Below, in pieces: positions 13,425 to 58,192 of a stretch of DNA of 64,000 nt. The notes under the pieces are model-generated. The model searched no databases. It saw only the letters and a program-made list of their open reading frames with translations, and was not told where the DNA came from. This stretch comes from Candidatus Anstonellales archaeon (GTDB lineage: Archaea; Micrarchaeota; Micrarchaeia; Anstonellales; CG1-02-47-40), in contig JAWCQO010000005.1 in assembly GCA_038869735.1 (NCBI GenBank), positions 7,538 through 71,537 on the forward strand. The letters run 5' to 3'. Position 1 is the stretch's first letter; every line of letters starts with the position of its first letter. The position numbers and the translations under genes are program-made.

Positions 13425-16400
13425 GGGTAAGCAATCGCATTTTTGACGCTAAGGGCGGCGGATGAAGAATGCGAGCGCGTCGTGCGGTTGCGCGAGCGCT
13501 TTATGAGGATGAAGGGAAAACCGTAAGATTCACAAGAGAGTATGGATATGATATGCTGCTTTAGGCTTGGCAGGGGATAGCTTGGCTTGGGCAATATATC
13601 CGCCGTGGCAAGCAGCGAAATGCCCGTGGTAGGCGCAGGCTGCCTGTAATCACGGGGTTGCGGATTTACGCGGGGAATTAAAACATTCTAGTACCCGCAG
13701 GAAAAGAAAAAAATTTGATTTGGCTAGTAAGGGCGACTGAACGCCAAACAGGGCGACCCGAATAGTCCGTCGCGAGGCGGAAAAGATGTGGGACCGCAAA
13801 ATCTCTCTCTGTGGAGAAGAAACCTCTGGAAAGTGGTGCCATAGAGGGTGAAAGCCCCGTATTCGAACCGGAGAGAGACGAGGTAAAAAGAGTAGTGTCC
13901 ATTGGTGATTGGGCACAAATATGGCAGAATCAACTGCCAACCCTAAATATACCCCAAGACCGATAGCGTACAAGTAGCGCGAGCGAAAGCTGAAAAGGAC
14001 CCCGGGAGGGGTGTGAAAAGAGCTTGAAACTGTCAAGCCACAGTTTGATGCGGCCAAAAAGCGGTTTATGTCCTTCAAAGCAACTGCTGGAGACGGCAGA
14101 AGCGAGAAGGAAGTAGCATGGTTGCATCGTCCTTCTATAAGCAAGGGCCAGGGAGTTTTCCTCAACGGCGAGGCGAAAGCCGGAGCGAAAGCGAGTACTA
14201 ACGTGCGACAAGTCGTTGGGGAAAGACCCGAAGCCGATGTGAGCTATACGTGGGCAGGGCGAAGCCGGCCTGACGGCTGGTGAAGGCCCGCAACCAGTAC
14301 TAGTATATTCTGTTTGGGTGACCTGCGTATAGGGGTGATAGTCCAGTCGAACTCGGCAATAGCGGGCTCCTCCTGAAGTATATCTCAGTATAGCGGCGCC
14401 GGAGCATGTCATACAGGGTAGAGCACTGATTAGGAGGAATGGGCCCGAGAGGGCTCGCCTTCTTGTCAAACTCCGAATCTGTATGAAGCGTAGATGGTGC
14501 TAGTAGGCTTCTCTCGGGTAAGCCGAGAGGACTGTACGGGAACAACCGTTACCGCGGTTAAGGCCCCCAAATCTTGGCTAAGTGCAACTTAAAAGAGTCT
14601 CTGCTCAAAAACAGCTGGGAGGTAGGCTTAGAAGCAGCCATCCTTCAAACAACGCGTAATAGCGGACCAGCCGAGAGCGCAGATTCTGAAAATGCTCGGG
14701 GCTATAAGCCAAGTGCCGATACCGCGGAGTGGCGCATTATGTAGATGCGCGCAATCTGGTAAGGAGGCGAACCGGTTGGGCAGAAGCGCGGGCGTAAGCT
14801 CGCGTGGACCGGCTGGTTATGATAATCCTGGTATTAGTAGCAGCATATCCAGGTGAGAATCCTGGACGCCGGAAGCACGCGGGTTCCTTGGCGATGCTCG
14901 TCAGCCAAGGGTAAGGCGATCCTAAGCGTCGCGCTAATCGCAAAGACGCGAAAGGGAAACCGGTTAAGATTCCGGTTCCAGACGGATAGGTGCGGTAACG
15001 CGAGGGTGTCTTTCTGACGCTTTGGGGTAGGCTCAGTGGAGGAGACTCCATTTAAGCAGGATAGTTCTCTGGAGTCTAGTTGTTAGGAGAAGGAGAACAA
15101 ACTGCGAAGGCCACACGGTTGAGCTGACCCCTGGAGCCCGTGAAAAGGAAAGACACAGCGATTCCGTCTGCTCGTACCTAGAACCAGTACAGGTGGTGCT
15201 GGCAGAAAAAGCCAAGGCGTGGCAGGAGAACTCTCGTAAGGGAACTTGGCAAATTAGTGGCGTAACTTCGGGATAAGCCATGCCTGCGGTTCTCTAAAAA
15301 GGAACTGCAGGTCTCAGTGACAAGGGGAGACCGACTGTTTACCAAAAACACAGGTCATCGCTGAGCCGAAAGGCTGAGTACAATGGCCGATGCCTGCTCA
15401 CTACTGGTACGTCAAACTCCGGTCCAACGGAGCGAAGCGCCAGCAAAGAGCGGGGGTAACTCTGACCCTCTTAAGGTAGCGTAATACCTCGCCGCTTAAT
15501 TGGTGGCTTGCATGAAGGGCATAACGAGTCTCCCACTGTCCCTACGAGGGACCTGGTGAACTTACTACTCTGTGAATATGCAGAGGACTTCCAGGGGGAA
15601 ACGAAGACCCCGTGGAGCTTTACTATAGCCTGTTGTTGGAATGCGGTGATGGTCGCGGAGCGTAAATGGGAGCCGTTAAGCCGTACCTTTTGGGGTGCGG
15701 ATAGGCGCCGTTGTAACACCATTCGGCTGTTATTGCATTTCTTACCGGAAGGGACAGCGACAGGTGGATAGTTTGGCTGGGGCGGTACATCCTCGATAAG
15801 GAAACAAGGATGCCCAATGTTCGGCTTAGGTGCGTCAGAAATGCACCGTTAAGGGACAAGGACAAATGCCGGACTGACTGTATCCCTAAAAGCATCGGAT
15901 GCAGAGGCGAAAGCCGGGCCTAACGAACCTTGGTATCCCTTTTGATGAGGGTCCAAGCTGTCAGACAAGCTACCCCGGGGGTAACAGGCTCGTCGCGGGC
16001 GAGAGACGCCTATCTTTAAGTTTTTAAAAAAGAAGGTAGGTGCTCAAATACCCATCGACCCCGCGGTTTGGTACATCGCTGTCGGCCTAGGTCATCCTGG
16101 CGGTGCAGGAGCCGCCAATGGTTGGGTTGTTCATCCATTAAAGACCTACACGAGCTGGGTTCAGAACGTCGCGAGACAGTTCGGTAGTATCTCCTGGGAG
16201 TGCAAATCCGCCTGAGAGGAAGAACCCTTAAGTACGAGAGGAACTTGGGTTCGAAGCCTCTGGTGTACCGGTTGTGAAAAGCAGATGCCGGGCAGCTACG
16301 CTTTATGGGATAAGACCTGAAAGCATCTAAGGTCGAAGCTCATCTCAAAACGAGGCGGTTTGGCGGTCGTAGCAGACGACTTTGATAGGAGGGAGGTGTA

Positions 16401-16460
16401 AGAGCCAAGCGCAAGCGAGGCTTTCAGCCTGCCCCTTACTAAAAGCCAGATGTATATCAT
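13425..16460 (+). rRNA. 23S: 23S (large-subunit) rRNA; ends approximate to +/-50 nt
   Basis: 5'-domain matches include ggcggatgaagaatgcgagcg, gggaattaaaacattctagtacccgcaggaaaagaaa and ctggaaagtggtgccatagagggtgaaagccccgta. The peptidyl-transferase region has ctgggttcagaacgtcgcgagacagttcggt. The sarcin-ricin loop agtacgagaggaac is at about 16223. Confidence 0.85.
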
Positions 16461-16685
16461 ATCCATTCCCTCTTCTGGAGCTTGCGGTTTTCTCAAAATC
16501 CTTAAAAACACTTTTTTCTGAAGTTCTGGTGCTTGAATGTGTTTAGACTGGCTCTTTCTTGCGCTATCTAACTTCTAATCTTTGCTTTCTATAGTTGTTG
16601 CTGCCTATAGGGTAATAATATTGCCACAATATTGAAAACGAAGGATATAGGCTTCCTTGCGCTATCTGCCTCTAATCTTTGCTAT

Positions 16686-23037: not shown

Positions 23038-24317
23038 TGCGACAACCTCACAAGGGTCGATATGTCTATTTGAGAGCCAAACATTGCTGCAAGCCACTGG
23101 ATAAACAGAAGCGTTATTGTTAGGTTCAGCGCAGTCGCAAATATGGAGCGCAGATATACTTGAAAGATGAGTGGTTCAAAGTTGTAAATGCTTTTGTTAT
23201 CGCCTATTTCTGTTTGGCCGATTAATGGTTCGATGAATTTTTCGCGTGTGCTTGCGTAGGAAAAATCAAATGGGTCGCATGTTTGAGTGCGAATCGTATT
23301 TGCAAGATTAGAATTTTGGTTGCTTCTGTAAGCTTGCAAGTACTCATTAGAGTCTAAAATTTCTCCAAAAAGAATTTTTTCTGAAAAAAGGAAAGTAAGC
23401 GGCAGGACAAGGTATAGCCCAGCTGCAAATGCTATTAACGTTCCACCTACTTTTCGCGTGAAGTTGAAAGTGCGAAGGAAGATTCCTATAGGAAGCAGGA
23501 TAGAGAAAGCATAATTCTTTGCAAAGCTCATGATAAGGAAAATTGCCTGAAAATCTGTAACAGCAAGAGACAATGATGTTGTCGCATGGGTGATGGAAGG
23601 GCGCATTGCATTTATGGCGGAACATGTGATTATTGAATACCCAACACCTAATATTGAGCAATAGCCGGATTTTGAGCCTTCTTGTCCCGATTTCTTTGAA
23701 ATTTCAAGATAGTTTGAGAGTAGGTCTTCGTAATTGCTCTTTACATCTTCAAGGGTTGCAAACGCGTAGTCATAAAATGTCCCCTCTACTTCTGCCCCAC
23801 CAGCTAAAGACTTAAATGCTGGGAGGAGAGAGGCGTCTAGATAATAAGCCATGCTAGTAAGAGAAGCTAGAATCAGTGCTGTAAAGATAAGTTGGGTCAG
23901 CTCATCTTTAGTATAGGTTTTTAGTTCAGTTATATTGAAGACGGAGCTACCCATATAAAGTAGCGATATTAATGAAGCGGAGATAAGAAAAGCTATGAGT
24001 ACTAGAGGAAGCCATTGTGACTGGCAACGGCAGTTAGAGCATGAGGCAGTTAAAGGACATCCGCCTCTTAGTTCTACTGCAGAAACTTCGCACTCCTCGC
24101 CTTGGTCAAGAACTCCGTTTCCACAGATTGGAAGCTGAACGTTGACGTTTTCTGCAATACATTCGCCGTTTTGGCAGATATAACCTTCTTGACATGGAGG
24201 GGAGCAGAGTGCAGCGTTTCCTCCTTCTCCAGCGGAGAAAAGAACAGCTGAGGCTAGGATAATGAAAAAGAGCTCAAGTATCAACGCCTTTTGTTGCTTC
24301 ATTTTGCTCCACATCAC
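23034..24317 (-). CDS. Paralog P4 (427 aa). It has a signal peptide, a small Cys-rich N-terminal ectodomain with one CGNGVLDQGEEC repeat, and the 5-TM core.
   Basis: ICGNGVLDQGEECEV. Core FLRTFNFTRKVGGTLIAFAAGLYLVLP. Tail AAMFGSQIDISTLVRLSQ. Confidence 0.7.
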   Translation of the reverse strand: MMWSKMKQQKALILELFFIILASAVLFSAGEGGNAALCSPPCQEGYICQNGECIAENVNVQLPICGNGVLDQGEECEVSAVELRGGCPLTASCSNCRCQSQWLPLVLIAFLISASLISLLYMGSSVFNITELKTYTKDELTQLIFTALILASLTSMAYYLDASLLPAFKSLAGGAEVEGTFYDYAFATLEDVKSNYEDLLSNYLEISKKSGQEGSKSGYCSILGVGYSIITCSAINAMRPSITHATTSLSLAVTDFQAIFLIMSFAKNYAFSILLPIGIFLRTFNFTRKVGGTLIAFAAGLYLVLPLTFLFSEKILFGEILDSNEYLQAYRSNQNSNLANTIRTQTCDPFDFSYASTREKFIEPLIGQTEIGDNKSIYNFEPLIFQVYLRSIFATALNLTITLLFIQWLAAMFGSQIDISTLVRLSQ

Positions 24318-26614
24318 AAAAATCTTGATATTCCCGGAAGTTCTATATCTCCTCCGAATGTTTGGGAAAAAACTCTAATGAATGCTATCAAGACAACTAT
24401 ATTAAAGAGTGGAAGAACGTAAGCAGGAATTGCAAGCACACCTACATTTTTTGTGTCACTCATGGTTGTTTTTGCTCCTGTCTGGCTGGATATAAAGCCT
24501 GCAGGGGTAAAATCGCGTGAAGCGGCGGTTGGGAGATTGCAAACTTCTGCACAATTTGTCCGTATTGGGGGTATTGTGGTGCAGTCATCATCACATTTGA
24601 GGCACGAAGTGCAAAGTGATGGCGGTGAGTCTGTTGTGAAATTGCTTTTGCATTCCTTGTTGCAATATGGTTCAAGGCAACTTGCGGGACAGTTTATGTC
24701 TCCAGCGTCTGCAACTCTGCACCTTTTTGGGCATGCAGAACATGTTCCGTCGGGTTGTGGTTGTATTGAGCCGTAGTTTTGACGAGTTGGAAAGTTTGCA
24801 CAGTTTTGAGAGGGAGAGGGGATCTGAATTCCACAATAAGCTCGACAGGCAACACAGGAAGGGTTGGTCCTACAATGTAATTGGAAGTAGTTGTCAGCGT
24901 CCTCATTGTCTTGGATGTTGGCGATGCGGCATTCGCGCTGGCAGCTTCCGCAAAGGGTAAGGCAGTCAAGTAGTTTTGGGTCTGGAATCCCTATCCTGCA
25001 GTTTGGTTCGTTTTCGCTTCTTCCCATTGGGCAATGTTCTTCTGTACATTCCTCGCATGCTTTCCAGACAGATTCTCCGTTTTCCTGCACTGGAAAGTCT
25101 GATGGCTTTGGAATTCTCCAATAGCCATCGACGGGGTCGTTTGGGTCATCATCTGACTTATCATCCGGATAAAGTGGATTGAAGTAATAAACACGACAAA
25201 AGTCTGGGCATAGTGTGCACTTGCCTTGGCATTCTGGCGACATATAACTGACTGAATTTATTATTGCACATCCAGATATATAGCAGCCATCTTGAGAATC
25301 TTCTATTCTATTTGCTCTGGAGCAAGTATTTTCACCAAATAACTGTTTGATTTCCTCCGGGGGGTCGGGTTTTTCGTCATCAGAAAAACATGTTGTCCTC
25401 TCGCGATAAGGGACATATGCTTGGTTGTCTGAATTCAGCTTACTTTTTCCTCCAACCTTACACTCGTCCGGGCAAGTGGAGCAAACGGCCCGTACATCAA
25501 CGTCCTTAACTATTTGACCTGCGTGTTCAGAGTCTTCTGCTATGAGATCTGATTTGGTGCAAGAAGGATTTTGGATAGGATAGGGAATTTCTCTACATAT
25601 GGAGGGACATGAGAGGATTACGGTTTGGCCAGTTATAGTCTCACCTTCTTGATTTACAACCATTTGATTTGTCAGTTGTCTCTTGCAACTTCCAAGCTCT
25701 TCGCAAGTGTTTATTTTCGGTGGGTTGAAAGTGCATTCTCCAGGACAATAATCTGGAGGTGGGGAGACCATCTGGTCTCCAAACACTGCAACTTTTAGAG
25801 TAAACCAAGAAAAGACGTAGAGCATTGGCCAGACTAAAAGCAGGGATATTCCGATTGCAAGTAAAAGCCCTCCTAATCTGCGCGAAAAGAAAAATGTGCG
25901 GAGGATAACTCCATAAAAAATGAGCACAGATGAAAGAGATGCTGACTGCGGGTTATTTGTTGAAGCCAGATTGGATAGAAAGCTTTTTTGGGTGGCAAGC
26001 GAAGAGTATATCCCTGAGAGAACATCGAAGTTGTATGAATATCTTTCTGTGTACATGGAATAGCCGGCATTTTTTCCTGAATAATAAGCGGCCCAGAGTG
26101 TGTAGTACGTGTTGGTAGACACTCCTTCTCGCTCAGAGGATTTTTTTGCATTTTCAAACGCATCTATGAGATTTGATTTTAGCGTTGAGTTTGTAATTGA
26201 AAGAAGCGAATCTAAGTAGCACAAACCAAGCGAGATTACATACGGCTGATTCTGGATGGGTTGGCAGGCAAATTGGCCTGCTGTTATTGATAGTAGAAAC
26301 GAAGAAAGGAACGAGAAAATAGCGATAAGAGAGATTATTATCAGAGCTGAAGCAAAGACTTGTGAGAGTTCTGTATTTGCCCAGACTTTTATTTCTGGGA
26401 TGTTTAGCCCTATCCCAACAATATATGCAATAGAAACGATGGATAAGGAGATGGCCAGCGCGATTATTGATGCCGATTGCCAATTTCCATTTCCAAGAAA
26501 TTGATTATATGTAAGATCTATGGGGGATAGCTGTAGGAGTGGCTGTGGGTACGAGAAAGTAGAGAATAGCAAAAGAACGAGGAGGATCTGCGTCTTTTTT
26601 AATTTTGTATTCAT
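24314..26614 (-). CDS. Paralog P3 (766 aa). The 5-TM core carries an about 420-aa Cys-rich ectodomain inserted between TM4 and TM5 rather than at the N-terminus.
   Basis: Core VILRTFFFSRRLGGLLLAIGISLLLVWP is followed by a long Cys-rich region. Final TM and tail: FIRVFSQTFGGDIELPGISRFL. Confidence 0.7.
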   Translation of the reverse strand: MNTKLKKTQILLVLLLFSTFSYPQPLLQLSPIDLTYNQFLGNGNWQSASIIALAISLSIVSIAYIVGIGLNIPEIKVWANTELSQVFASALIIISLIAIFSFLSSFLLSITAGQFACQPIQNQPYVISLGLCYLDSLLSITNSTLKSNLIDAFENAKKSSEREGVSTNTYYTLWAAYYSGKNAGYSMYTERYSYNFDVLSGIYSSLATQKSFLSNLASTNNPQSASLSSVLIFYGVILRTFFFSRRLGGLLLAIGISLLLVWPMLYVFSWFTLKVAVFGDQMVSPPPDYCPGECTFNPPKINTCEELGSCKRQLTNQMVVNQEGETITGQTVILSCPSICREIPYPIQNPSCTKSDLIAEDSEHAGQIVKDVDVRAVCSTCPDECKVGGKSKLNSDNQAYVPYRERTTCFSDDEKPDPPEEIKQLFGENTCSRANRIEDSQDGCYISGCAIINSVSYMSPECQGKCTLCPDFCRVYYFNPLYPDDKSDDDPNDPVDGYWRIPKPSDFPVQENGESVWKACEECTEEHCPMGRSENEPNCRIGIPDPKLLDCLTLCGSCQRECRIANIQDNEDADNYFQLHCRTNPSCVACRAYCGIQIPSPSQNCANFPTRQNYGSIQPQPDGTCSACPKRCRVADAGDINCPASCLEPYCNKECKSNFTTDSPPSLCTSCLKCDDDCTTIPPIRTNCAEVCNLPTAASRDFTPAGFISSQTGAKTTMSDTKNVGVLAIPAYVLPLFNIVVLIAFIRVFSQTFGGDIELPGISRFL

Positions 26615-29119
26615 TTACATCCCTATTTCAGAAACCTTACGGATTGCGGATGCAAACCCATGCACTGAGGTTATTATTATAATTATCGCGAGATTCGGAA
26701 GAAAAACGGCTTGTGGGAGAAGCAAGGCGAGCGTTTTAAAGGAAACGTGTGGGTCTGCAGCAATATAAAATGAATCAAGAACTTGGCTTGTTAGAGGATA
26801 TGTGTTTGCGAAGAGGGTATAGATTGCTGGAAATATTAAGTAAAGTGAAAAGCAGAGTGCCATAAGATAGTTTCCTGCGGTCCTGGTTGGTGGAAGGACT
26901 CTTAGAAAAATTGCAAAGGATAGGAAGAGTACTATTATTGGTTGGTTTTCTTGAGGGGTGGAAATGAAAAGAAGCCTAAATAGTTCTAACTGGAGTTTTA
27001 TGCTGACTATCATTGGTATGAGCAGGTCTATCATCACTTCCTGGGATTGTGAATACGCTCTCCTGATTGCGTCTTTTGATTCTCCTTTGCCACCTTTAAA
27101 TGGAATGCCAACAAAGAGATAGTTTGTTGCTTTGAGTTGATTAGTAAGACTACCTTCAGTTAGACGTTGAACTTCTGCCGTTCCGATTCTTTGAAGAGAG
27201 TCAAGGTATTTTGTTGAGTAAACGTACATCGTTGTACCTTCCGGGACATTTAAAAATGAGCCTATGACGGCGTTTGAGTTTTCAAGAAAGTTTGTTGCTA
27301 GAATCAAAACGGCAAAAATAGCTGACCAACCAAGATGCACTGCTTCGTCTCTTAGCAATATGTCAAGATGTACATTGCCTCCGAAATATTTTGAGTACAT
27401 AAATGCAAGGGCTATGAGCAGGACGATTAAAAAAAATGCAGAGTGCACCAGTGCAGCGATGTTGCCTGAGCTAGGGCAGTCCTGTTGACAATAGACAGGT
27501 TCTGCTCCTTCACATCTGCCGTTTCCACATTCAAATGATGTTTGGATGCACCTGCAAGAATAGGGGTCGCAACTAAACTTTTCACTACAGTTGTTTTCTA
27601 TTCCAGGATCGCACTCTTCGCCTTGGTCAAGAACTCCGTTTCCACAAAGCATTTGAGGAGGCTGTTTAGTTATTAAAACCTCCTTGCTTTCTTGCGCTGA
27701 GATTATGCTATCTGAATAGATAATCGACGCTTTAAACACCAGTGTTTTTCCTTCTGAGCAGGACTCATAGAGTGGGCATACTATTGACCTTGTTAGTTGT
27801 TGGTCTGCCTGTACTTGTGTAGAGCCACTTAACAGCACTTCGGATGAAGATTCTGAACGGATTACCCACTCCCACTCAAGACTTTGGGGGCTAACACCTT
27901 CTGGAGACGGAATGGTGATCCGTAATGATGGTGATTGTGACTCTGTGGCGGGGTTTGGCGTAATGTCAGAAAGAATTGGAGGGGGATGTTCTGGCACTAA
28001 TTCATCTATAGTAGCTTCGTCAAATGTTTCATTGGAGGTGTAGCGTTCTCCTTGGCCATAAGAAAGAGTTGCATAAAACCTAAGAGTTGAACGATCAGGG
28101 CAACCGTTATCCAGATTGAAGCAGTAGTAGGTTTGATATGAGTAATTTGTTGTTCCTCTTCTGTAGGCCTGTGTTCCTTGATGAATGGTTACACTCATTC
28201 CGTCCGGTTGCGTTAATTCGAAGCGCCAGTTTATAGTGTTGGGCTCAATGATGTTTTCAGGTATTGTGACGATTCCGTTAAAAACGTCTCGGGGATTCGC
28301 ACGTTTTGGTTTAATTGAAACTGATGGTGGGAGGATAGGTTCATAGTATGCATCGTCAGATTGAGAGTAATCAGTGCAAGCATAAACAGAGCATGCCCTT
28401 ACACGAACATGAACGTTTCTTGGTGATGAGGCTGAGCACCCTGGATAGTCTGAGCATCTAAAAGACATTGCTGATTGGCCCTCCATCCATGGAGTTTCAA
28501 AGTCTGGTCCGTCTCCAAGATAGGCAACCCACTTAAATTGATAGATAAAGTTACTTGCGTCTCCCTGTCCGGCAGTGACAAGTTGACATGAGGAGCGGCC
28601 GGATATTTGGTTGCAATAATTTCTATTTGCGACAGTGGCTGAATCTATTCCTGAAGTGTATCCTCTGCATCGAATGTTCCACGGAGGTCCACTTTCGCCT
28701 TCAAGCCCTTCATCTGGGACACAAGAGTTTGAGTTTACATCCCAGTGACAACCGGCGGGTTGCTCTTGAAGAAAATAAGGAGCGTTATAATCGCTATATT
28801 GGGCACTCAAAGAATTACAATTATTTTGGTTTAGGATACTGCATCTTGCTTGTGAATTTTGAGCTCCCTGAGCAAGCTGGCATAATCTGCTGGCAAAATA
28901 ACTCCCTGCTCGGCAGCCTCCGCTCCAGTCATTGCTTATGCTAACTGTTGTTGAATACGAAGGAATTGAAATTAGTGTGAGCTCTGGTTTTTCTGGAATG
29001 CCGGACACAACATTACCGCCTGCACCCTCGTCATCATCACCGATTATGCAATTTTGTGACATAAGAAATTGAGCAGCAAATACTAGAAAGAGCAGGATGA
29101 AACTATAGGGGCTTTTCAT
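26615..29119 (-). CDS. Paralog P2 (834 aa). It has a signal peptide, an about 520-aa Cys-rich N-terminal ectodomain ending in CGNGVLDQGEECD, and the 5-TM core.
   Basis: LCGNGVLDQGEECDPGIENNC. Core AIFLRVLPPTRTAGNYLMALCFSLYLIFP. Tail SAIRKVSEIGM. Confidence 0.7.
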   Translation of the reverse strand: MKSPYSFILLFLVFAAQFLMSQNCIIGDDDEGAGGNVVSGIPEKPELTLISIPSYSTTVSISNDWSGGCRAGSYFASRLCQLAQGAQNSQARCSILNQNNCNSLSAQYSDYNAPYFLQEQPAGCHWDVNSNSCVPDEGLEGESGPPWNIRCRGYTSGIDSATVANRNYCNQISGRSSCQLVTAGQGDASNFIYQFKWVAYLGDGPDFETPWMEGQSAMSFRCSDYPGCSASSPRNVHVRVRACSVYACTDYSQSDDAYYEPILPPSVSIKPKRANPRDVFNGIVTIPENIIEPNTINWRFELTQPDGMSVTIHQGTQAYRRGTTNYSYQTYYCFNLDNGCPDRSTLRFYATLSYGQGERYTSNETFDEATIDELVPEHPPPILSDITPNPATESQSPSLRITIPSPEGVSPQSLEWEWVIRSESSSEVLLSGSTQVQADQQLTRSIVCPLYESCSEGKTLVFKASIIYSDSIISAQESKEVLITKQPPQMLCGNGVLDQGEECDPGIENNCSEKFSCDPYSCRCIQTSFECGNGRCEGAEPVYCQQDCPSSGNIAALVHSAFFLIVLLIALAFMYSKYFGGNVHLDILLRDEAVHLGWSAIFAVLILATNFLENSNAVIGSFLNVPEGTTMYVYSTKYLDSLQRIGTAEVQRLTEGSLTNQLKATNYLFVGIPFKGGKGESKDAIRRAYSQSQEVMIDLLIPMIVSIKLQLELFRLLFISTPQENQPIIVLFLSFAIFLRVLPPTRTAGNYLMALCFSLYLIFPAIYTLFANTYPLTSQVLDSFYIAADPHVSFKTLALLLPQAVFLPNLAIIIIITSVHGFASAIRKVSEIGM

Positions 29120-31162
29120 TTATATCAACCTATAAAGACCAATTATTCTGGTATCGCCTCCAAGAACTTCTGATGTGCCTTTGGTCATTACGACCGTTAT
29201 AAAAACTGTTAAGAGGATGGATATTAGCGCATTTGTGTAAAAGCCAGATATTAGATGTAGAACTGATTCAAGAGGGGAGTAATAGTCTGAAATGAGCTCT
29301 GATTGAGATATTGCTGCATAGTTATAGAGTGCTGGCCCAAATGGAAGCGGGAATCCCTGCACAATTGCAAGGTAAGTTAGCTTTACTATGTTCGCACATG
29401 AAAAGAAGCCGCCTGCAGTGGCAGGATTTGACAGAAGAATACTACATATGAGCCACTCATAGAAGTCTTCTCCGGGTAAAACGAACAGCGCAAATGTAGA
29501 TGAACACACTAAACTTTGTGCTGGTGGACTACCGGGATCAAAATCAGTTGCATTTTTTATTGAGTTTAGGTCTAAGTTTGTTTGTGTATAGGCCCATGAG
29601 GCAAAAACGATACTGGCAGGAAACCAAAGATATGCTCCAATACACACAGCAATAAGGGTAGTACCTACCCTTCTTGTTAATGGAAATGTTCTTAGGGCAA
29701 ACGCAGCTGGTAGAAGAAGTGTTGGGATTGTTGATGAGAAAAAGTAAAGAAGCATTTTTTGTATTGAAAAGGCATATATTATTTTTGATAAATTATCCAA
29801 AGCTTGGAGGATGCTTGAGGTTAGGATAGATAGTCCAGCTGATGGAGAACGGGATATAAATTTATTTGAGTAAAACGGAATAAGTGGAGTGCTTAATGAA
29901 TAAGAAAAACTTGAAATCTTTGAAATGTAAAAGTTTACTTCAGCCAGATAGTTTATTGAATTTCTCGAATTCTGGATAAAGTAATCAATGTGAGAAATCG
30001 CAGCTGAAGTCATATCTGGAGAACCCGTAATCGCACTTGCAAATGTCTCTATTCCAGCTATAGCAATAATGGTGGCAATTATTAATGCTGCACTTGCAAA
30101 AACCTCTCTAAATTCTGATTTTGACCAAACGTGGAGTTGGATTGAGTTGGTAAATTCTGCAAGCATATAGGCAATGGCTGAAATTACGACGGCTGCAAAA
30201 AGACCTATTAGGATTATTGGTGAAATAGCGATTTGGACTGCATTGCCAAATAGGCGCGGGGCTGAAACGCACTGGCAACTTTCACAAATAAAGGCGTCTG
30301 CACATTGGTTGGTGTATTCACACTGTTCGTTTTCTTCGTCAATTATTCCGTTTCCACAATAAGGTGGGTTTGCTCTAGCCACTTCATTTACTGACACACA
30401 AGAACAGGAGAAGCATCTCTGACCGACTTGGCAGTCTGCATCTGAATCGCACTCTTCGCCTTGGTCAAGAACTCCGTTTCCACAGCTGGATGTGAAAGTA
30501 TAGGGATTGAAATCTCTAATTGATTCACATGTGCAATTTTGAGAGCATGTGTAGCCTGGAGCACAATTGTTTGTGTTTATGTCGCATTCCTCTCCAGCAT
30601 CTAAAAATCCATCACCGCACTGTGGTCCAAAAGCTATCTGTTCGGCTGTTGGGCTGCATTGGTTATTTAGGCAGGAATATCCTGCTTTACAATCAGCATT
30701 TGTTAGGCATGATGTTTTGCATGTGCAAGATTGCGAGCAGACGTATGCGCCACAGTTGAGGTTTTGTTCTTTGTCGCATTCCTCTCCAGCATCTAAAAAT
30801 CCATCACCGCATACTGGAAGGGAAGATACGCACTGGCAACTTAGAGGATCGCAGAGTTGTCCGCTTTTGCAGATTATTTTAGAATCAGCCGGGTCACACT
30901 GTTCCCGTCCCGTAATTTTTCCGTCGCCGCATACTGAGTTATCCTGTACGCACTGGCATCCGGGGTTACAGTAAAAGCCGAATGGGCAATCGCTGTGAAT
31001 TTCGCATTGCTCTTGTGGTTGCTCGACTATTCCGTTTCCGCATATGTGAGCAGGGGGGCTACTTTGAGCAAAGAAAACTCCGCTTGAAAGGAGAAGAGTG
31101 AAAAATAGTATGGCGAATATGGAGCGCTTGTCAAAAATCACAAAGCCAAGCATCATAAACAC
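29120..31162 (-). CDS. Paralog P1 (680 aa), first gene of the operon. It has a signal peptide, six DUF4215-like Cys-rich repeats in the N-terminal ectodomain, and the 5-TM core.
   Basis: Repeats CGNGIVEQPQEQCE, CGDGKITGREQCD, CGDGFLDAGEECD x2, CGNGVLDQGEECD, CGNGIIDEENEQCE. Core FALRTFPLTRRVGTTLIAVCIGAYLWFP. Tail LGGDTRIIGLYRLI. Confidence 0.7.
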   Translation of the reverse strand: MFMMLGFVIFDKRSIFAILFFTLLLSSGVFFAQSSPPAHICGNGIVEQPQEQCEIHSDCPFGFYCNPGCQCVQDNSVCGDGKITGREQCDPADSKIICKSGQLCDPLSCQCVSSLPVCGDGFLDAGEECDKEQNLNCGAYVCSQSCTCKTSCLTNADCKAGYSCLNNQCSPTAEQIAFGPQCGDGFLDAGEECDINTNNCAPGYTCSQNCTCESIRDFNPYTFTSSCGNGVLDQGEECDSDADCQVGQRCFSCSCVSVNEVARANPPYCGNGIIDEENEQCEYTNQCADAFICESCQCVSAPRLFGNAVQIAISPIILIGLFAAVVISAIAYMLAEFTNSIQLHVWSKSEFREVFASAALIIATIIAIAGIETFASAITGSPDMTSAAISHIDYFIQNSRNSINYLAEVNFYISKISSFSYSLSTPLIPFYSNKFISRSPSAGLSILTSSILQALDNLSKIIYAFSIQKMLLYFFSSTIPTLLLPAAFALRTFPLTRRVGTTLIAVCIGAYLWFPASIVFASWAYTQTNLDLNSIKNATDFDPGSPPAQSLVCSSTFALFVLPGEDFYEWLICSILLSNPATAGGFFSCANIVKLTYLAIVQGFPLPFGPALYNYAAISQSELISDYYSPLESVLHLISGFYTNALISILLTVFITVVMTKGTSEVLGGDTRIIGLYRLI

Positions 31163-42141: not shown

Positions 42142-42858
42142 TCAGGGATTTTCTGCTTTTGCAATATAACCGCCTTTTAGGAGCCTATCAAGTGCTTGTT
42201 CAACGCGGACTTCGGAGACGCCGTGTGCCTTCGAAAAGGAACTTATACGTATTCTACCACCATGTATCTTTATCCAATCAAAAACCATACATTCAAGCTC
42301 AGTGTCGGATATTCCATCAATTGAATCAAGACGTTTTTTTAGTATTGAATTTGTTTTTTCAAGTTCCATTCTGATTGAGCTTTCCTTTTCCAATAATTGC
42401 GACATTGTCTTGTACTCTTTAGATAGGCGTCTGCATTCTGCTGTCAATTTTTCACATTGGTTGGAGAGGATTTCCTGCTGGGTGTTTGTAAGCTTAAGAA
42501 GATGGTCTATTGGACCTCTGAGGATGGAATGGGCTTGTGAAAGAGGTATATTATAGCAGTTGCAGATGGCGAGTATGTCAAATAAATTAAGTAGCATTGA
42601 GAGGCGACGCGTGAGGTGTCTCTCTGATTCAGTTGTAAATTCAAGTTCAAATCCAGTGGGCATTAAAGAAAGAGTCCAAAAAGCGCGTGGATTGCCAATG
42701 AAGTCTTGTGATTCTACATGGGTTATACTAATAGTATCTGAACTCTTTAATGGGCGAAAGCCGATGGAGGAGAGGTTCTTAATTAGTTCGTCTGCGTTTT
42801 TTGTGCGCTTGCATTTGAGGCTAATTTTTTCTGTTTGTAATTTCAATCTAATCACCAT
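42142..42858 (-). CDS. Hypothetical protein with a C-terminal winged-helix, co-operonic with the VirB4-like ATPase
   Basis: C-terminal HGGRIRISSFSKAHGVSEVRVEQALDRLLKGGYIAKA; it overlaps the ATPase stop. Confidence 0.5.
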   Translation of the reverse strand: MVIRLKLQTEKISLKCKRTKNADELIKNLSSIGFRPLKSSDTISITHVESQDFIGNPRAFWTLSLMPTGFELEFTTESERHLTRRLSMLLNLFDILAICNCYNIPLSQAHSILRGPIDHLLKLTNTQQEILSNQCEKLTAECRRLSKEYKTMSQLLEKESSIRMELEKTNSILKKRLDSIDGISDTELECMVFDWIKIHGGRIRISSFSKAHGVSEVRVEQALDRLLKGGYIAKAENP

Positions 42859-44347
42859 CCAAAGTTAGTGTTGCGAGTTTATCAGCATCGGCTCCGAGAC
42901 GAGAACGCTGAAGGGTAGAAAAGAGGCTTAAAAGTGATGCCTCTGGCGCTCCGAGTTCTCTGAAGAGTGATAGAATCCGTGTTCTTGCAAAACCATATTT
43001 TTCGAGTAAGGAGACGAGTTCCTGTGCAGGAATAGTGTTGCCAGACAGTGAAAACCTTAAAAGGATCTCTGAAACCTGTTCGTCTTGAAGGCCGAATAAG
43101 TGTAGCTTTCGCCTCAGCTCTTCTTTTTCAAATTCGAATTTCATTCCATCACCCCGCAGAGATAGGAGCACGAAAGGCTCTTCACCATCAATTTTTTTTA
43201 TTATAAACGTTGTCGAGCTCGTTGTTTTTTCTTTCCGTATTAGATGAACTGCGGCTGACCCAACGTTGAAGGTTGATATCTGTTTGGCTATTTCATCAGA
43301 ATAAGCTAAGGAGGAGCGGACGTAGTCTTTGTATTCATGAAGAAGAAGACGAAAGATGAAAATTGTTCCTGCATTTGAGAGGATTGTTTTGCTTATATCG
43401 GTTGGATTTTGCGATGCCACTATGAGAGAGAAGCCGTACTTTCTTCCTTCTCTTATCAGAGAAACGGCATCGCTCTTTTCATCTTGAGCTATTTTCCATG
43501 CTTCGTCAAGCACAACAAACAGCCTTATTTTATCTTCTTGAGTTGGTTGGCTGCGCATTAATTCAATTATGAATTGGAGGATAGTGAGGCCGGCTAGGCT
43601 TCTTGATTGCTCTGAGGGTAAGCTATGGAGGTCTACGCATACTAAGCCTGAAGAAGCAAGCTGTAAAATGCTAGTTGTAGATTTTCCAAAAAAGAAGTTC
43701 TGGTTTGGGGAACATAGTTTCTCAAGTCGGTATATGCATTCTTCAATATCGTCCTTTTTCTGTTCACTTTTTGCTTTCTTCAAAAAAAAGTGAAGATGGT
43801 CAAAAACATCTGCAATTGTAGGGACTCTGTTTTTTGAACATTTATATGCCTGGCGAAAAGCTTTCTCAGTTATTCTTTTTTGTGATGGATAGTTGGAAAT
43901 GTCTGTGAGTATTTCAAGCGCATCTATTATCTGGGTTATTCGTTCCTCCTTTTCTCCTATGCAGTCAAGAAGGTTGAGGCTATGCCCTTCCTTAAAGCTT
44001 ATTATTTTTCCACCAACTTCCCGTACCCATGGCACATATTCTCCTGACCAATCAAGAATTAGTGCGTTTGCGCCCCAAACGAGACTTGCCCTTACCAGGA
44101 ATGTCTTTATAAGGTAGCTCTTCCCGCTTCCGGATATACCTAAGATTACTATGTGTGGATTTGCAAGGAGTGCCGGATTCCAGAAAAATGGGGTTGAAAA
44201 AATAGAGGTTCTGCCAACGTAAATTGAATTTGAAGGGTTGTTTGAAAGGAAGGTAATGGGAGGTTCCTCTTCTGAAAAAAAGATCTGTCTACTATCAAAA
44301 TCAGAGGTAAAAAACCTCTCTAAATTGATATTACCCATATTAAGCAA
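42848..44347 (-). CDS. VirB4/TrbE/HerA-like (DUF87/AAA_10) P-loop ATPase
   Basis: Walker A ILGISGSGKSYLIK; Walker B LFVVLDEAWKIA (the DEAW box typical of VirB4); an Arg-finger region. Confidence 0.75.
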   Translation of the reverse strand: MLNMGNINLERFFTSDFDSRQIFFSEEEPPITFLSNNPSNSIYVGRTSIFSTPFFWNPALLANPHIVILGISGSGKSYLIKTFLVRASLVWGANALILDWSGEYVPWVREVGGKIISFKEGHSLNLLDCIGEKEERITQIIDALEILTDISNYPSQKRITEKAFRQAYKCSKNRVPTIADVFDHLHFFLKKAKSEQKKDDIEECIYRLEKLCSPNQNFFFGKSTTSILQLASSGLVCVDLHSLPSEQSRSLAGLTILQFIIELMRSQPTQEDKIRLFVVLDEAWKIAQDEKSDAVSLIREGRKYGFSLIVASQNPTDISKTILSNAGTIFIFRLLLHEYKDYVRSSLAYSDEIAKQISTFNVGSAAVHLIRKEKTTSSTTFIIKKIDGEEPFVLLSLRGDGMKFEFEKEELRRKLHLFGLQDEQVSEILLRFSLSGNTIPAQELVSLLEKYGFARTRILSLFRELGAPEASLLSLFSTLQRSRLGADADKLATLTLDGD

Positions 44348-44348
44348 C

Positions 44349-45125
44349 TCAGGATGTTTCCTCTTTTATTTCGGTAGCTGTTTCTGGGATTGCGTACTCC
44401 CATTCAAAGCACTTTTTCATTTCTTCTCCGCGTAAAATTGAAACCCGCGCAGAGAGCGCGTTTGCGAATATTGCTTTTATTTCGTTTGCTTGTGAACGTG
44501 ATTTGGTTTGAGCTTCTTCGAAGCTATCACCATATGCTGTTGTTGAGACAAACGCTAACGATTGGATTGGCTTCTCTCCATTTGCAAGTTTGTTTATTTG
44601 TGAGGTCCACATCGAAATCTCGCGCTCGAGAACCGCTATTTGGGCGGCATTTTTGTGTTGATCAAGAAGCAGTTGTGACTTCTTATTCTCAGCCAGACTT
44701 CTCCGTGCCTTTAGCTCATCTAAAACTGATGAGAGGTCTGGATTATAGAGAAGTACGGAAAGTTTGCAGGGTGAACGTATTGAAGATATTGCTTTTGCAA
44801 AGCTTGAGCTGTTGGGTTGGGCTGTTGGTTGTACTGGCTCAAGATTAATTGAAAGAAATGTTGTTGCAAGATAGCCGTTTTGTGTTTTCTTGACAAGAAC
44901 GTCTTGACTCGGCGGTATCTGAAATTCGCCTATTCTCTCCTTTAGCCCTAATCCAAGGAATATGGACGGCATTATTGCATAGCCATACTTCCAAAGAAAA
45001 AAGGAAATTGACAATAAGAAGGCGCAGAGAAACGCAAAGAAAGCTGAGCCGACAGAGATAGATAGAAGGAGGGAAATTGCCGAACCAGCGATACAGATTA
45101 GTGCTATGGACCGTGTGCCTATCAA
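44349..45125 (-). CDS. Membrane protein (2 N-terminal TM) encoded immediately upstream of the VirB4-like ATPase
   Basis: N-terminal double TM; coiled-coil-like C-terminus; 1-nt gap to the ATPase. Confidence 0.5.
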   Translation of the reverse strand: MIGTRSIALICIAGSAISLLLSISVGSAFFAFLCAFLLSISFFLWKYGYAIMPSIFLGLGLKERIGEFQIPPSQDVLVKKTQNGYLATTFLSINLEPVQPTAQPNSSSFAKAISSIRSPCKLSVLLYNPDLSSVLDELKARRSLAENKKSQLLLDQHKNAAQIAVLEREISMWTSQINKLANGEKPIQSLAFVSTTAYGDSFEEAQTKSRSQANEIKAIFANALSARVSILRGEEMKKCFEWEYAIPETATEIKEETS

Positions 45126-47214: not shown

Positions 47215-48390
47215 TTAGGCGTACTTTTCTATAAACTGTCCAATTTTGGATACTGCTTCTTCTATTATATCGGGAGGAGGGAGAAAGGTTATTCTGAAGT
47301 AGAGACCGTTCAAAATTGGGGAGAAACCGCTACCTGGGATAGCTACAACTCCTGTTTCTTCTAGAAGCGAATACACAAACTTTTTGTCGTTTTTGAATTT
47401 TTTTGTTTTTACTTTGATGAATGCATAAAACGCTGCGTTTGGAGTAGGACACTGAAGGGCTGGTATTTTTGATATTGAGCGGATGAGTGCGTCTCTTCTT
47501 AAAAGAAGTTGTTTTTTGACATCTGCAAGATGGGTTGGAGGTAGGGTAAAGGCAGCTAATGCCCCACGCTGCATCTCCCAATTGACAGATAAACGCTGGT
47601 TGCATAGCTTCATTATTGCAGTCTGGAGGTCTTCTGTACCTTCACCATGAAATGCAAGATATCCAACTCGTGCACCGGGATAGATAAAGTTCTTTGATAG
47701 ACCGTTTCCAGAAATCAGAGGAACGTCATGTGAAATGGAGCGTAGATTAATCATGGGTTGCTCGTTGAGTATTAGCTGGTCGTATATTTCATCTGCAATG
47801 ATTGGGAGTGAGTTTTCACCTGCGATGTTAACTATTTCTTTTAGTAGTGAATGAGGGTAGACTGTGCCTGTAGGGTTGTTGGGATTTATGACTACAATTG
47901 CACGGGTTCTCTTATTTACTCTTTTTCTGATCTCATCTGGAATTGGAAGATAGTTTTCATCGCATGGATAGAAGTTGTCGGTTCCTCCCAAAACCCGTGA
48001 TTTTGTATTATACAGCGGATAGCCTGGAGATGGAAGTAGTATATTGTCTCCTGGGTTTAAGAGTGACTGGAAAAGGAAGTCTATTCCTTCGGAGAGTCCG
48101 TTTGTTATAAAAACTGCTTGTGGGTTCACACCTTCCCTTTTAGCTATTGTTTGGCGAAGTTCAGGATCTCCTTCCGAAGGGCAATAACCAGAGTATTTTG
48201 GTTGGTGTAACGCTTCGATGACTGCGTCGGTTATGTGCTGAGAGGGGCAAAAACCAAACAGATTCGGGTCGCCTATATTGAGCCAAATCATTTTCTTTCC
48301 TTTTTTTTCAACTTCCTTTGCTTTTTGGACGATATCCCGAATTTCATAAGTGATATGTGCTACTCGCGATGCAACTCTGATTTTTTGCAT
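47215..48390 (-). CDS. PLP-dependent aminotransferase, class I/II (Asp/Ala aminotransferase-like)
   Basis: NPNNPTG; the PLP-Lys region GNGLSKNFIYPGARVGYL. Confidence 0.85.
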   Translation of the reverse strand: MQKIRVASRVAHITYEIRDIVQKAKEVEKKGKKMIWLNIGDPNLFGFCPSQHITDAVIEALHQPKYSGYCPSEGDPELRQTIAKREGVNPQAVFITNGLSEGIDFLFQSLLNPGDNILLPSPGYPLYNTKSRVLGGTDNFYPCDENYLPIPDEIRKRVNKRTRAIVVINPNNPTGTVYPHSLLKEIVNIAGENSLPIIADEIYDQLILNEQPMINLRSISHDVPLISGNGLSKNFIYPGARVGYLAFHGEGTEDLQTAIMKLCNQRLSVNWEMQRGALAAFTLPPTHLADVKKQLLLRRDALIRSISKIPALQCPTPNAAFYAFIKVKTKKFKNDKKFVYSLLEETGVVAIPGSGFSPILNGLYFRITFLPPPDIIEEAVSKIGQFIEKYA

Positions 48391-48421
48391 AAGCGAAGGT
48401 AATACGACTATAAGTTATAAA

Positions 48422-56858: not shown

Positions 56859-56862
56859 GTAA

Positions 56863-56969
56863 AGCGGGATGGGGTAGTTTGGAGTGCCCGCTGGGCTCAT
56901 AACCCAGAGATCGGTGGTTCAAAGTTCTGGTTTTTATGGAAACCAGAAATGAAAGTCCACCTCCCGCTA
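56863..56969 (+). tRNA. Initiator tRNA-Met (CAU) with a non-canonical T-loop intron (about 56922-56955)
   Basis: A1:U72 acceptor AGCGGGA/UCCCGCU; three G:C pairs in anticodon stem CUGGG-CUCAUAA-CCCAG; T-stem GGUGG/CCACC split after UUCAAAG by a hairpin-forming insert. Confidence 0.8.
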
Positions 56970-57812
56970 CTTCCACTAATCAAATATACGTGGTTGGTTT
57001 TCTGTTCTCTATTTTAGTCAAATATTATTGATTGGTTCTTAATCAGATATGGTTGGTTCTCTAATTGTTTGGTTTGGTTGTTGTTTGTTAGTCTAGAAAT
57101 TCTGGGTTCTTTTTCTATTTTGTTTTTTGGTTGTAGTCTATTTATAAAGTAAACCTAAACTATTATTAATATTTTATGTAACTATAGTTACATTATGTTA
57201 TTATATTTCTACGATTTGAAAGCAAAAGATTTAAGACTATATAATAACATAAAACGCCGATTTTATTACGAACTATCAACATCAAAACTCACACAAGCCT
57301 TTTTTAGAACAAAATCCGTCTTAGTAGTTCCAGATGAATTAGAAACGTATGCAGATAATTTTTTTAAAAAATATTCAGAATATCTAGAAGTTTACAAAGC
57401 TCGAACACGCCTCATCCTTCAAATAAACTAACTCCGTATTCTCAACTACACATAACATATAAACAACAACATATAAACAACAAGCGCAGTTTCTAATAGA
57501 ATAAACAAAAACAGAAATCACAACCAAACCCAACCAAACACTCAACAAATATCCCAACTCGCCCATCTATTAAAGCTAACAAAAACTATACTCCTTCTTT
57601 AATTATTCCTTCTTTAATTATATTACCTTCTTAAATAAACAAAAAATTAATTATATTACCTTCTTAAATAAACAAAAAAAGCAAAACAATAAATTATAGT
57701 TCAAAGTACTTAGTTAAGTATTCGGCGAGACACTACTAGACACTAATTAATTGGTAGGTGTTAAACAACTAAGTAGGGTTAAAACAATTAGTGGAAGCGT
57801 CCCCCCACACTA

Positions 57813-58073
57813 TTATAAACTAGCACTCCCCCCAGCAGCACTTTTTGATACAACAACCACATCTTCAATAGACCGAACACTTTTAAACAAAACACTTCGA
57901 TCTCTAAGTATTTTTTTTGCTTCTTCTTTTGATACGACATTTAATGGTTCCATAGTAAGACGGACAACTTCTCCTGCCTCTAAATCAATAATAATATCCT
58001 GTACCTTACCAAGAAATCTTCCTCCATCAGTGTAGATATCCATTCCGTATATTGATGAAAGCGCCATGCTCAT
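57813..58073 (-). CDS. PRC-barrel domain protein
   Basis: GMDIYTDGGRFLGKVQDIIIDLEAGEVVRL fits the PRC barrel pattern. Confidence 0.5.
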   Translation of the reverse strand: MSMALSSIYGMDIYTDGGRFLGKVQDIIIDLEAGEVVRLTMEPLNVVSKEEAKKILRDRSVLFKSVRSIEDVVVVSKSAAGGSASL

Positions 58074-58192
58074 GTTAAACCACCCTAATCTCTCTACTCA
58101 ACACCTATTTAAAAACTTATTCCTAAAAATTTTCATCCCATTTGTAGATTCAAAATACAGACTTCAGTTATTGAAGCCAAAGGAGAATAAAA

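Follow-up and report, generated by a model that had tools for sequence, protein, structure and literature searches.

A conserved Micrarchaeota operon of six membrane protein paralogs, with a large cysteine-rich loop domain fixed in the third

The window analysed here, 64,000 nucleotides of contig JAWCQO010000005.1 from a Candidatus Anstonellales archaeon, contains an array of genes for paralogous membrane proteins. The third of these, P3 (24314–26614, minus strand), carries a large cysteine-rich (Cys-rich) domain inserted in a loop between two transmembrane (TM) helices. We show that an ancient set of six five-TM paralogs (P1 to P6), of which P3 is the third subunit, is co-encoded with a Cys-rich lipoprotein, S, and conserved across the DPANN phylum Micrarchaeota. 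The loop insert is a fixed, ancestral trait of position 3 and not a free graft. In this genome P1, P2 and P4 bear Cys-rich domains at the N-terminus, DUF4215 repeats that were added later and are specific to the lineage; only the N-terminal site behaves as a graft site.

P3 is encoded by an uninterrupted open reading frame (ORF). Its signal peptide is separated from TM1 by a linker of only ~20 amino acids (aa), so the N-terminus is short. Hydropathy, the alignment of all six paralogs and an AlphaFold2 (AF2) model agree on the order of the helices, with TM1 at aa 45–68 and TM2 at aa 81–111; the TM1–TM2 hairpin includes E82, a family-invariant Glu. Four hydrophobic helices, TM1 to TM4, precede the insert, all of them modelled as long helices with a predicted local distance difference test (pLDDT) score of ~90. 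The loop between TM3 and TM4, RTFFFSRRLGG, holds three Arg/Lys and no acidic residues. Between TM4 and TM5 lies the insert of 446 aa with 44 Cys. The short N-terminus and large Cys-rich insert that the original prediction had described for P3 are thus both present.

A frameshift, gene fusion or mis-assembly might also generate such an architecture, and we looked for signs of one. No point in support of an artefact was found. The ORF is continuous, the identical protein is recorded separately at NCBI as QXF67_02830 (Candidatus Anstonellales archaeon), and the segment beyond the insert, TM5 and the C-terminal tail, aligns with its counterpart in the other paralogs. The same architecture recurs in 68 independent genomes. 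Orthologs with the same layout include P0032 (64% identity, 787 aa), P0033, P0036, P0003 (572 aa), P0034 and P0035 (the last two 1098 and 1143 aa), and the insert site is retained from 64% down to ~25% identity. Because the architecture persists in orthologs this divergent, we exclude a frameshift or fusion artefact, whose probability we regard as negligible.

P3 does not stand alone. Between 31162 and 16686, seven ORFs succeed one another on the minus strand in the order P1 to P6 and then S, the start codon of each abutting or overlapping the stop codon of the one before. Four paralogs had been noted originally, but there are six in tandem: P5 (22027–23097) and P6 (20986–22026) were overlooked. 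All six share a common core consisting of TM1, a short loop, TM2, a central domain of ~100–120 aa, TM3, the motif LRxFxFTRxxGG, TM4, a loop of variable length, TM5 and a tail of the GG(D/E) type. Before TM1, P1 has 314 aa (40 Cys), P2 has 555 aa (28 Cys) and P4 has 103 aa (10 Cys), in agreement with the N-terminal Cys-rich domains predicted for these three. P1, which is 100% identical to NCBI entry QXG33_00835 (Candidatus Anstonellales archaeon), also carries the predicted insert: its TM4–TM5 loop, the site occupied in P3, is ~115 aa long. The mechanically assigned start of P5, a GTG at 23097, creates a 64-nt overlap with P4; the true start is probably the ATG at 23037, which forms an ATGA overlap with the P4 stop codon and gives a normal signal peptide beginning MIRTNNTLLFFVLALGG.

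For all six paralogs we infer a topology in which the N-terminus is outside, TM1 runs inward and TM2 outward, the central domain is outside, TM3 runs inward and TM4 outward, the variable loop is outside, TM5 runs inward and the C-terminal tail is in the cytoplasm. Segments resembling signal peptides start P1 to P5, and the secretory-type Cys-rich domains that lie between signal peptide and TM1 in P1, P2 and P4 place the side preceding TM1 outside the cell. As TM1 to TM4 make an even number of crossings from this outer N-terminal side, the P3 insert should also be outside. The charge distribution agrees: the 10-residue TM3–TM4 loop contains two to three Arg/Lys and no Asp/Glu in all six paralogs, and the TM1–TM2 loop contains one to two Arg/Lys, so that both fit the positive-inside rule as cytoplasmic loops. 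Were the TM3–TM4 hairpin re-entrant rather than membrane-spanning, the P3 insert would lie outside all the same.

The opposite arrangement, a cytoplasmic insert whose CxxCxxxC motifs bind iron–sulfur clusters or zinc, would have undone the original prediction. The six CxxCxxxC and six CPxxC motifs of the insert, enriched over shuffled sequences, do resemble metal-binding spacings, and the insert contains just one N-glycosylation sequon. Metal binding by such motifs is possible outside the cell too, so they leave the side undecided. The even number of crossings between the insert and the N-terminus that follows the signal peptide, the secretory Cys-rich domains on that same N-terminal side in P1, P2 and P4, and the strongly positive TM3–TM4 loop, as a cytoplasmic loop should be, all speak for an extracellular insert. 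We therefore consider a cytoplasmic location very improbable and retain the outside placement.

We scanned genomes at species level (one genome per species) with a P3-type alignment, whose C-terminal tail motif [LF]GGD[IVY][ED][IL]PG retrieved 106 genomes. From these 106 matching genomes 80 loci were fetched, and together with locus L001 (JAOAKI010000005.1) they make up a set of 81. Nearly all of the 80 are labelled Micrarchaeota or one of its subgroups, with a few entered as ‘Candidatus ainarchaeum sp.’ or ‘archaeon’. Exactly six family members are present in 68 of the 81 loci, and two to five in the other 13. When members were classified by best hit, the order P1-P2-P3-P4-P5-P6 was found in 60 of the 68 six-member loci, and an S homologue lies directly downstream of P6 in 68 loci, usually within 100 nt. 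The conserved order and the accompanying S gene indicate that every paralog of the window belongs to a long-established orthogroup, each with its own constant position among the seven genes of the operon.

Loop lengths at the six array positions were compared across the 68 six-member loci. The median length of the TM4–TM5 loop is 125 aa at position 1 (interquartile range 119–130), 25 aa at position 2, 404 aa at position 3 (range 281–1220, with 20–102 Cys), 56 aa at position 4, 65 aa at position 5 and 51 aa at position 6. Every one of the 68 position-3 proteins therefore has a large loop insert, and no protein at another position has a loop exceeding 200 aa. Invariant Cys and Pro columns, for example C336, C352, C378, C385, C469, C473 and C668, run through the alignment of P3-type inserts, which argues that the insert was acquired once and inherited vertically, its length drifting afterwards. 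The P1 loop of ~125 aa at the same site is likewise fixed.

The N-terminal site shows the reverse pattern. Extensions of at least 100 aa occur sporadically at every position, in 4–19% of genomes per position. In L001, P1 and P2 have no N-terminal extension, and P4 and P5 have extensions of ~400 and ~100 aa. The L001 P4 ortholog (13429–15630, plus strand) was split by the deposited gene calls into products of 43 and 339 aa, although a continuous ORF of 733 aa is present, and this ORF carries the ~400-aa Cys-rich N-terminal domain. The split call suggests that N-terminal ectodomains of this family may be under-called in annotations.

The domains at the two sites also differ in kind. The N-terminal domains of P1, P2 and P4 are related to one another (E-values of ~1e-7 to 1e-6) and have in common the repeat CGNGVLDQGEEC. 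That of P1 matches Pfam PF13948 (30.1 bits, cut-off 27) and TIGR02232 (25.3 bits, cut-off 20.8), the DUF4215 or ‘Myxococcus cysteine-rich repeat’, and contains six CG[ND]G...EEC motifs; P2 and P4 hold one or two units of the form CGNGxxxxGEEC. None of the 68 species-representative loci contains this DUF4215-type motif. The likeness is limited to these lineage-specific domains: the P3 insert has neither a PF13948 or TIGR02232 match nor a CG[ND]G...EEC motif, shows no detectable similarity to the N-terminal domains of P1, P2 and P4 or to S, and represents a different, unclassified Cys-rich domain. The original idea of one variable ectodomain sitting at different sites in different paralogs consequently does not hold.

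The insert has its own signature. Its CxxCxxxC and CPxxC motifs, six of each, compare with ~0.4 expected for either, and six was reached in none of 20000 shuffles; typical units are CSTCPDECKV, CTLCPDFCRV and CSACPKRCRV. Among P3 orthologs the number of motifs (r = 0.72) and of Cys residues (r = 0.93) scales with length. We considered a tandem array of long repeats and rejected it, as self-BLAST of P3 and three long orthologs gave no off-diagonal matches; only the short CxxCxxxC/CPxxC motif recurs.

A generic scaffold onto which diverse ectodomains are grafted freely at two equivalent extracellular sites, as first proposed, thus survives in part. The shared five-TM core, the outward orientation of both sites and the variability of the outer parts stand; the equivalence of the sites does not, since the loop domain is tied to position 3. 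Free grafting would account for extra domains at both sites somewhere in the family, for the low conservation of the outward-facing regions and for N-terminal extensions gained and lost between orthologs. It conflicts with the confinement of large loop inserts to position 3 in 68 of 68 loci, with the single ancient acquisition and vertical descent to which the invariant Cys columns point, and with the tightly fixed length of the P1 loop, and we judge it improbable. The array instead presents one scaffold that combines an ancient, orthogroup-fixed loop domain with evolutionarily labile N-terminal domains, two sites that differ strongly over evolutionary time.

A profile search with the full-length alignment of the six paralogs was swamped by DUF4215 repeat proteins, and an alignment of the core only was used instead. 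Searched exhaustively, the core profile retrieved 2884 cluster representatives at E≤1e-3 and 1990 at E≤1e-10. Of the 158 top family members, 70 are minimal (~300–440 aa). A long loop insert is present in 51, an N-terminal extension of at least 100 aa in 43 and both in 21; the 51 loop inserts measure 150–1251 aa and consist of ~10% Cys. All named members are ‘hypothetical’ or ‘uncharacterised’ proteins of Micrarchaeota. No Pfam family covers the core in the six paralogs or in 77 minimal members that were scanned, and Pfam and NCBIfam returned nothing for P3, P5, P6 and S and no match above its cut-off for P2.

Conservation is distributed unevenly over the scaffold. Calculated over 457 members, the information content per alignment column reaches its maximum in the TM3–TM4 loop (2.57 bits), followed by the C-terminal tail (2.36) and TM4 (2.17), and is lowest in the two outer regions, at 0.87 bits for the central domain and 0.77 bits for the other. 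Residues E62, R217, R223, G226 and P241 (P6 numbering) are essentially invariant, and three elements that face the cytoplasm are nearly invariant: the Glu that opens TM2, the LRxFxFTRxxGG loop and the GG(D/E) tail. Since conservation peaks in cytoplasm-facing parts, the constant face of the scaffold is the cytoplasmic one, and the outward-facing parts of the paralogs are free to vary.

Faint but recurring similarity links this core to subunits of DNA transfer systems. P4 matches the NCBIfam model of CedA (NF041796) with 19.8 bits and an E-value of 4.6e-4, from the end of the central domain through TM3–TM4. Of the 68 P4 orthologs, 7 match CedA (best E 2.8e-5) and 3 match CedE, where ~0.7 chance matches in total would be expected at the threshold used. 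Among the 77 minimal members, 6 match CedE (NF053657; best E 1.2e-5) and 4 match CedA. This amounts to 20 CedA/CedE matches in 145 members scanned, some of which may match both models, and in both member sets every other NCBIfam family is matched by one member at most. Similarity to the CedA/VirB6-like superfamily thus recurs above chance. CedA and TedA are VirB6 homologues (PMC9905601), and CedE has five TMs and is VirB6-like (PMC11868833). The superfamily topology, with the N-terminus outside, about five TMs, a large outer TM2–TM3 loop and the C-terminus inside, is also that of the paralogs as judged from hydropathy, AF2 models, loop charge and signal peptides. When the AF2 model of P6 was compared with 350,542 chains of the Protein Data Bank (PDB) by Foldseek, the top two were TrwI/VirB6, with an E-value of 0.03 and TM-scores of 0.24–0.29. 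Two of the 77 minimal members weakly match Pfam PF18895, ‘T4SS_pilin’ (best E 0.005); in CedA and VirB6, the TM hairpin at the N-terminus is reported to share homology with the VirB2/CedA1 pilin (PMC9905601). None of the paralogs belongs to any curated CedA/VirB6 family. We regard remote homology of the six-paralog scaffold to the CedA/VirB6 class as likely but not proven. On this view the family is a variant of the VirB6/CedA-like membrane subunits, although it may well prove to be more distinct.

The last gene of the operon encodes S, whose orthologs are 1150–1700 aa long. The Gly-Cys of the lipobox and many further Cys residues are invariant in 26 orthologs. S has no match in Pfam, NCBIfam or PDB sequences, including when a profile of its orthologs was searched against the PDB sequences. 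The Micrarchaeota S-layer protein SLP_Mh matches PF05123 and has almost no sulfur-containing residues (10.1101/2021.04.28.441871). We considered whether S is the S-layer protein, and its 73 Cys and the absence of a PF05123 match rule this out.

A candidate cytoplasmic partner is encoded elsewhere in the window: a P-loop ATPase gene (42848–44347), 12 kb from the array. In NCBIfam it matches CedB (E 8.8e-25), VirB4-like CD1110 (4.3e-21), CedD (1.5e-19) and HerA (6.2e-15), and in Pfam the DUF87, AAA_10 and TraG P-loop families. It belongs to a three-gene cluster (42142–45125, minus strand), between genes for a 258-aa protein with two N-terminal TMs and a coiled coil and a 238-aa coiled-coil protein. 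This cluster could be the motor of a Ced-like system, and the ATPase is a possible partner of the paralog array.

The function of the P1–P6 and S set we can only infer. Our preferred reading, which we hold to be somewhat probable, is that the six five-TM paralogs and S form a heteromeric membrane platform distantly related to CedA, CedE and VirB6, with a conserved inner and a variable outer face, that serves in host contact. The six subunits would assemble with one copy each. Their scaffold would be a very distant relative of the channel subunits CedA/CedE, of archaeal DNA import, and VirB6, of bacterial type IV secretion. A partner in the cytoplasm, perhaps the CedB/VirB4-like ATPase, would dock onto the conserved inner face. 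Lipoprotein S, the loop domain of P3 and the optional N-terminal domains would span the space under the S-layer and touch the host cell, and the outer domains together with S would make up the extracellular part of an apparatus for host contact or for uptake from the host.

Several observations weigh against this proposal. The CedA/CedE scores are far under the curated cut-offs (~20 bits against 330 for CedA). Pfam TrbL/VirB6 (PF04610) was not matched by the six paralogs at E≤0.1 and is missing from the 25 families listed at E≤1 for the 77 minimal members, and profile searches of the minimal members and P4 orthologs against PDB sequences gave no meaningful match. A Foldseek search with the P3 model returned no VirB6, only enzymes of the fumarase/lyase type with long helices, which we treated as noise; in that model aa 390–720 of the insert are of low confidence. 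The topology is based on hydropathy, charge bias and signal peptides and not on a dedicated predictor. A genomic association of the kind seen in type IV secretion systems (T4SS) and Ced, with a VirB4/CedB ATPase and a VirB2/CedA1-type pilin beside the array, was not observed: no locus has a VirB4-like ATPase gene closer than 10 kb to the array, and in none does a pilin-like gene lie in or beside the operon. The neighbours of the operon are housekeeping genes, unlike the context of a secretion system.

The main alternative is that P1–P6 and S are a structural envelope scaffold, for instance pillars or anchors to which the S-layer is fixed or which determine how wide the pseudo-periplasm is, without a role in transport and without common origin with CedA/VirB6. 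A universal, single-copy operon amid housekeeping genes, the lack of an adjacent ATPase or pilin gene and a CedA/VirB6 similarity below every curated threshold would all be in keeping with it. Moreover, S-layer anchoring is unexplained in Micrarchaeota, and a separate membrane stalk protein has been proposed (10.1101/2021.04.28.441871). On the other hand, of 18,950 models only those of CedA and CedE are matched repeatedly, the strongest conservation is cytoplasmic, which is unexpected for a purely external anchor, and S differs from the S-layer protein. We therefore find an envelope scaffold rather unlikely, and prefer the host-contact platform.

A bolder version of this platform would be a phylum-wide Micrarchaeota surface machine, with a pseudo-symmetric hetero-hexameric base derived from VirB6/CedA and Cys-rich outer parts that dock to the host, through which an obligate symbiont takes up DNA or metabolites; in this specific form we think it unlikely. 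Cryo-tomography of the envelope of ARM-1, a Micrarchaeon, has revealed an unassigned 21-nm barrel-like docking platform (PMC11329633). It is speculation on our part that this barrel is a candidate for the structure built by the P1–P6 and S operon.

DPANN archaea such as Micrarchaeota live attached to hosts, and the molecules that make contact are essentially unknown. The operon, a single-copy locus of fixed order in 68 of the 81 Micrarchaeota loci, takes up ~14.5 kb of a very small genome, and all its members are annotated simply as ‘hypothetical protein’. Such strong conservation in reduced genomes suggests an important function in the envelope. If the CedA/VirB6 link is true, T4SS-derived archaeal transfer systems (Ced and Ted) extend to DPANN, and the array is a heteromeric six-paralog version of a subunit that is elsewhere homo-oligomeric. 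Our literature search found no paper describing the six-paralog family or its operon and no link between DPANN or Micrarchaeota and VirB6 or CedA.

Table 1 Coordinates of the operon, of the P3 segments and of the candidate ATPase in the window
Feature	Coordinates	Strand	Description
P1, 680 aa	29120..31162	-	N-terminal DUF4215 repeats ~30263-31057; ~115-aa TM4-TM5 loop ~29255-29596
P2, 834 aa	26615..29119	-	~545-aa N-terminal ectodomain ~27476-29056, then core
P3, 766 aa	24314..26614	-	Third paralog of the array; uninterrupted ORF
P3 signal peptide, aa 1-23	26546..26614	-	MNTKLKKTQILLVLLLFSTFSYP; Lys-rich n-region then hydrophobic h-region, read from sequence
P3 TM1-short cytoplasmic loop-TM2 hairpin, aa 45-111	26282..26482	-	Predicted from hydropathy; AF2 helices 45-69 and 73-111, pLDDT ~90
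P3 central outer domain between TM2 and TM3, aa 112-225	25940..26281	-	AF2 helix and beta-hairpin, pLDDT 83-95
P3 TM3-cytoplasmic loop-TM4, aa 226-272	25799..25939	-	Family signature RTFFFSRRLGG; invariant R, R, G and P columns
P3 extracellular Cys-rich insert, aa 273-718	24461..25798	-	446 aa, 44 Cys, six CxxCxxxC and six CPxxC motifs
P3 TM5 and cytoplasmic C-tail, aa 719-766	24317..24460	-	Tail ...FGGDIELPGISRFL; hydropathy, AF2 helix 719-752
P4, 427 aa	23034..24317	-	~65-aa N-terminal Cys-rich domain ~24024-24221, then core
P5, 356 aa	22027..23097	-	Minimal paralog without ectodomain; alignment and hydropathy
P6, 346 aa	20986..22026	-	Minimal paralog without ectodomain; alignment; AF2 model with pLDDT 86.8 and predicted TM-score (pTM) 0.82
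S, 1431 aa	16686..20981	-	Cys-rich lipoprotein, last operon gene; 73 Cys, lipobox (…LFLVGC)
CedB/VirB4-like P-loop ATPase, 499 aa	42848..44347	-	NCBIfam and Pfam matches; 12 kb from the array

The housekeeping genes around the array are archaeal and include those for TBP, DUF655, rRNA dimethylase, aIF2 and tRNA synthetases. Immediately downstream of the operon, a complete archaeal 23S rRNA gene (13546–16462, plus strand) stands by itself, and the window contains neither a 16S nor a 5S rRNA gene; the ORFs at 13650–14165 and 13930–14469 fall inside the 23S gene and are spurious. Further away, an AT-rich intergenic region of 1.3 kb (56859–58192; GC content 0.34) contains perfect tandem repeats of 33, 15 and 14 nt, two copies each, and coincides with a flip in GC skew from ~+0.3 to −0.35. 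On these features it may be a replication origin or terminus. No gene for an origin-binding protein adjoins it; a TFIIE-alpha-like gene lies upstream and an uncharacterised gene downstream. Large ORFs of 775, 326 and 462 aa, at 48350–50677 (plus strand) and 60820–63152 (minus strand), have no Pfam match, and the 775-aa ORF has no NCBIfam match either.

Among known systems, the closest comparison is with CedA and CedE of the Ced DNA import system of Sulfolobales and TedA of Thermoproteales. These are likewise archaeal polytopic membrane proteins, CedE having five TMs, and CedA and CedE are themselves paralogs that are thought to act together; a CedB/VirB4-like ATPase is encoded in the same genome here as well. 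The Ced and Ted systems, however, use one or two such subunits, whereas six fixed paralogs are found here. In the window no pilin (CedA1/TedC) or ATPase gene is adjacent to the paralogs, which instead have large Cys-rich ectodomains and a giant lipoprotein partner, and the hosts of the systems are Thermoproteota there and DPANN here. A second comparison is with bacterial VirB6/TrbL proteins, such as TrwI of plasmid R388 and Agrobacterium VirB6, and with DotA of the Legionella Dot/Icm system. In work by Jakubowski et al. from 2004, Agrobacterium VirB6 is said to have its N-terminus outside, five TMs, a large outer TM2–TM3 loop and its C-terminus inside, and in this the paralogs are alike. They differ from these proteins in giving no PF04610 match and structural scores that are not significant. 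VirB6 forms a homopentamer in a multi-protein secretion system, other parts of which were not found beside the operon. Tandemly duplicated VirB6-like genes with large extra hydrophilic domains on a conserved polytopic core, a possible parallel to the array described here, are known from the RvhB6 paralogs of Rickettsiales and from TraG of the F plasmid. The extensions of RvhB6 and TraG are mainly C-terminal, while those of the Micrarchaeota proteins are N-terminal or in the TM4–TM5 loop, Cys-rich and, by the topology proposed above, extracellular. The six paralogs described here are also fixed in number and order across a phylum.

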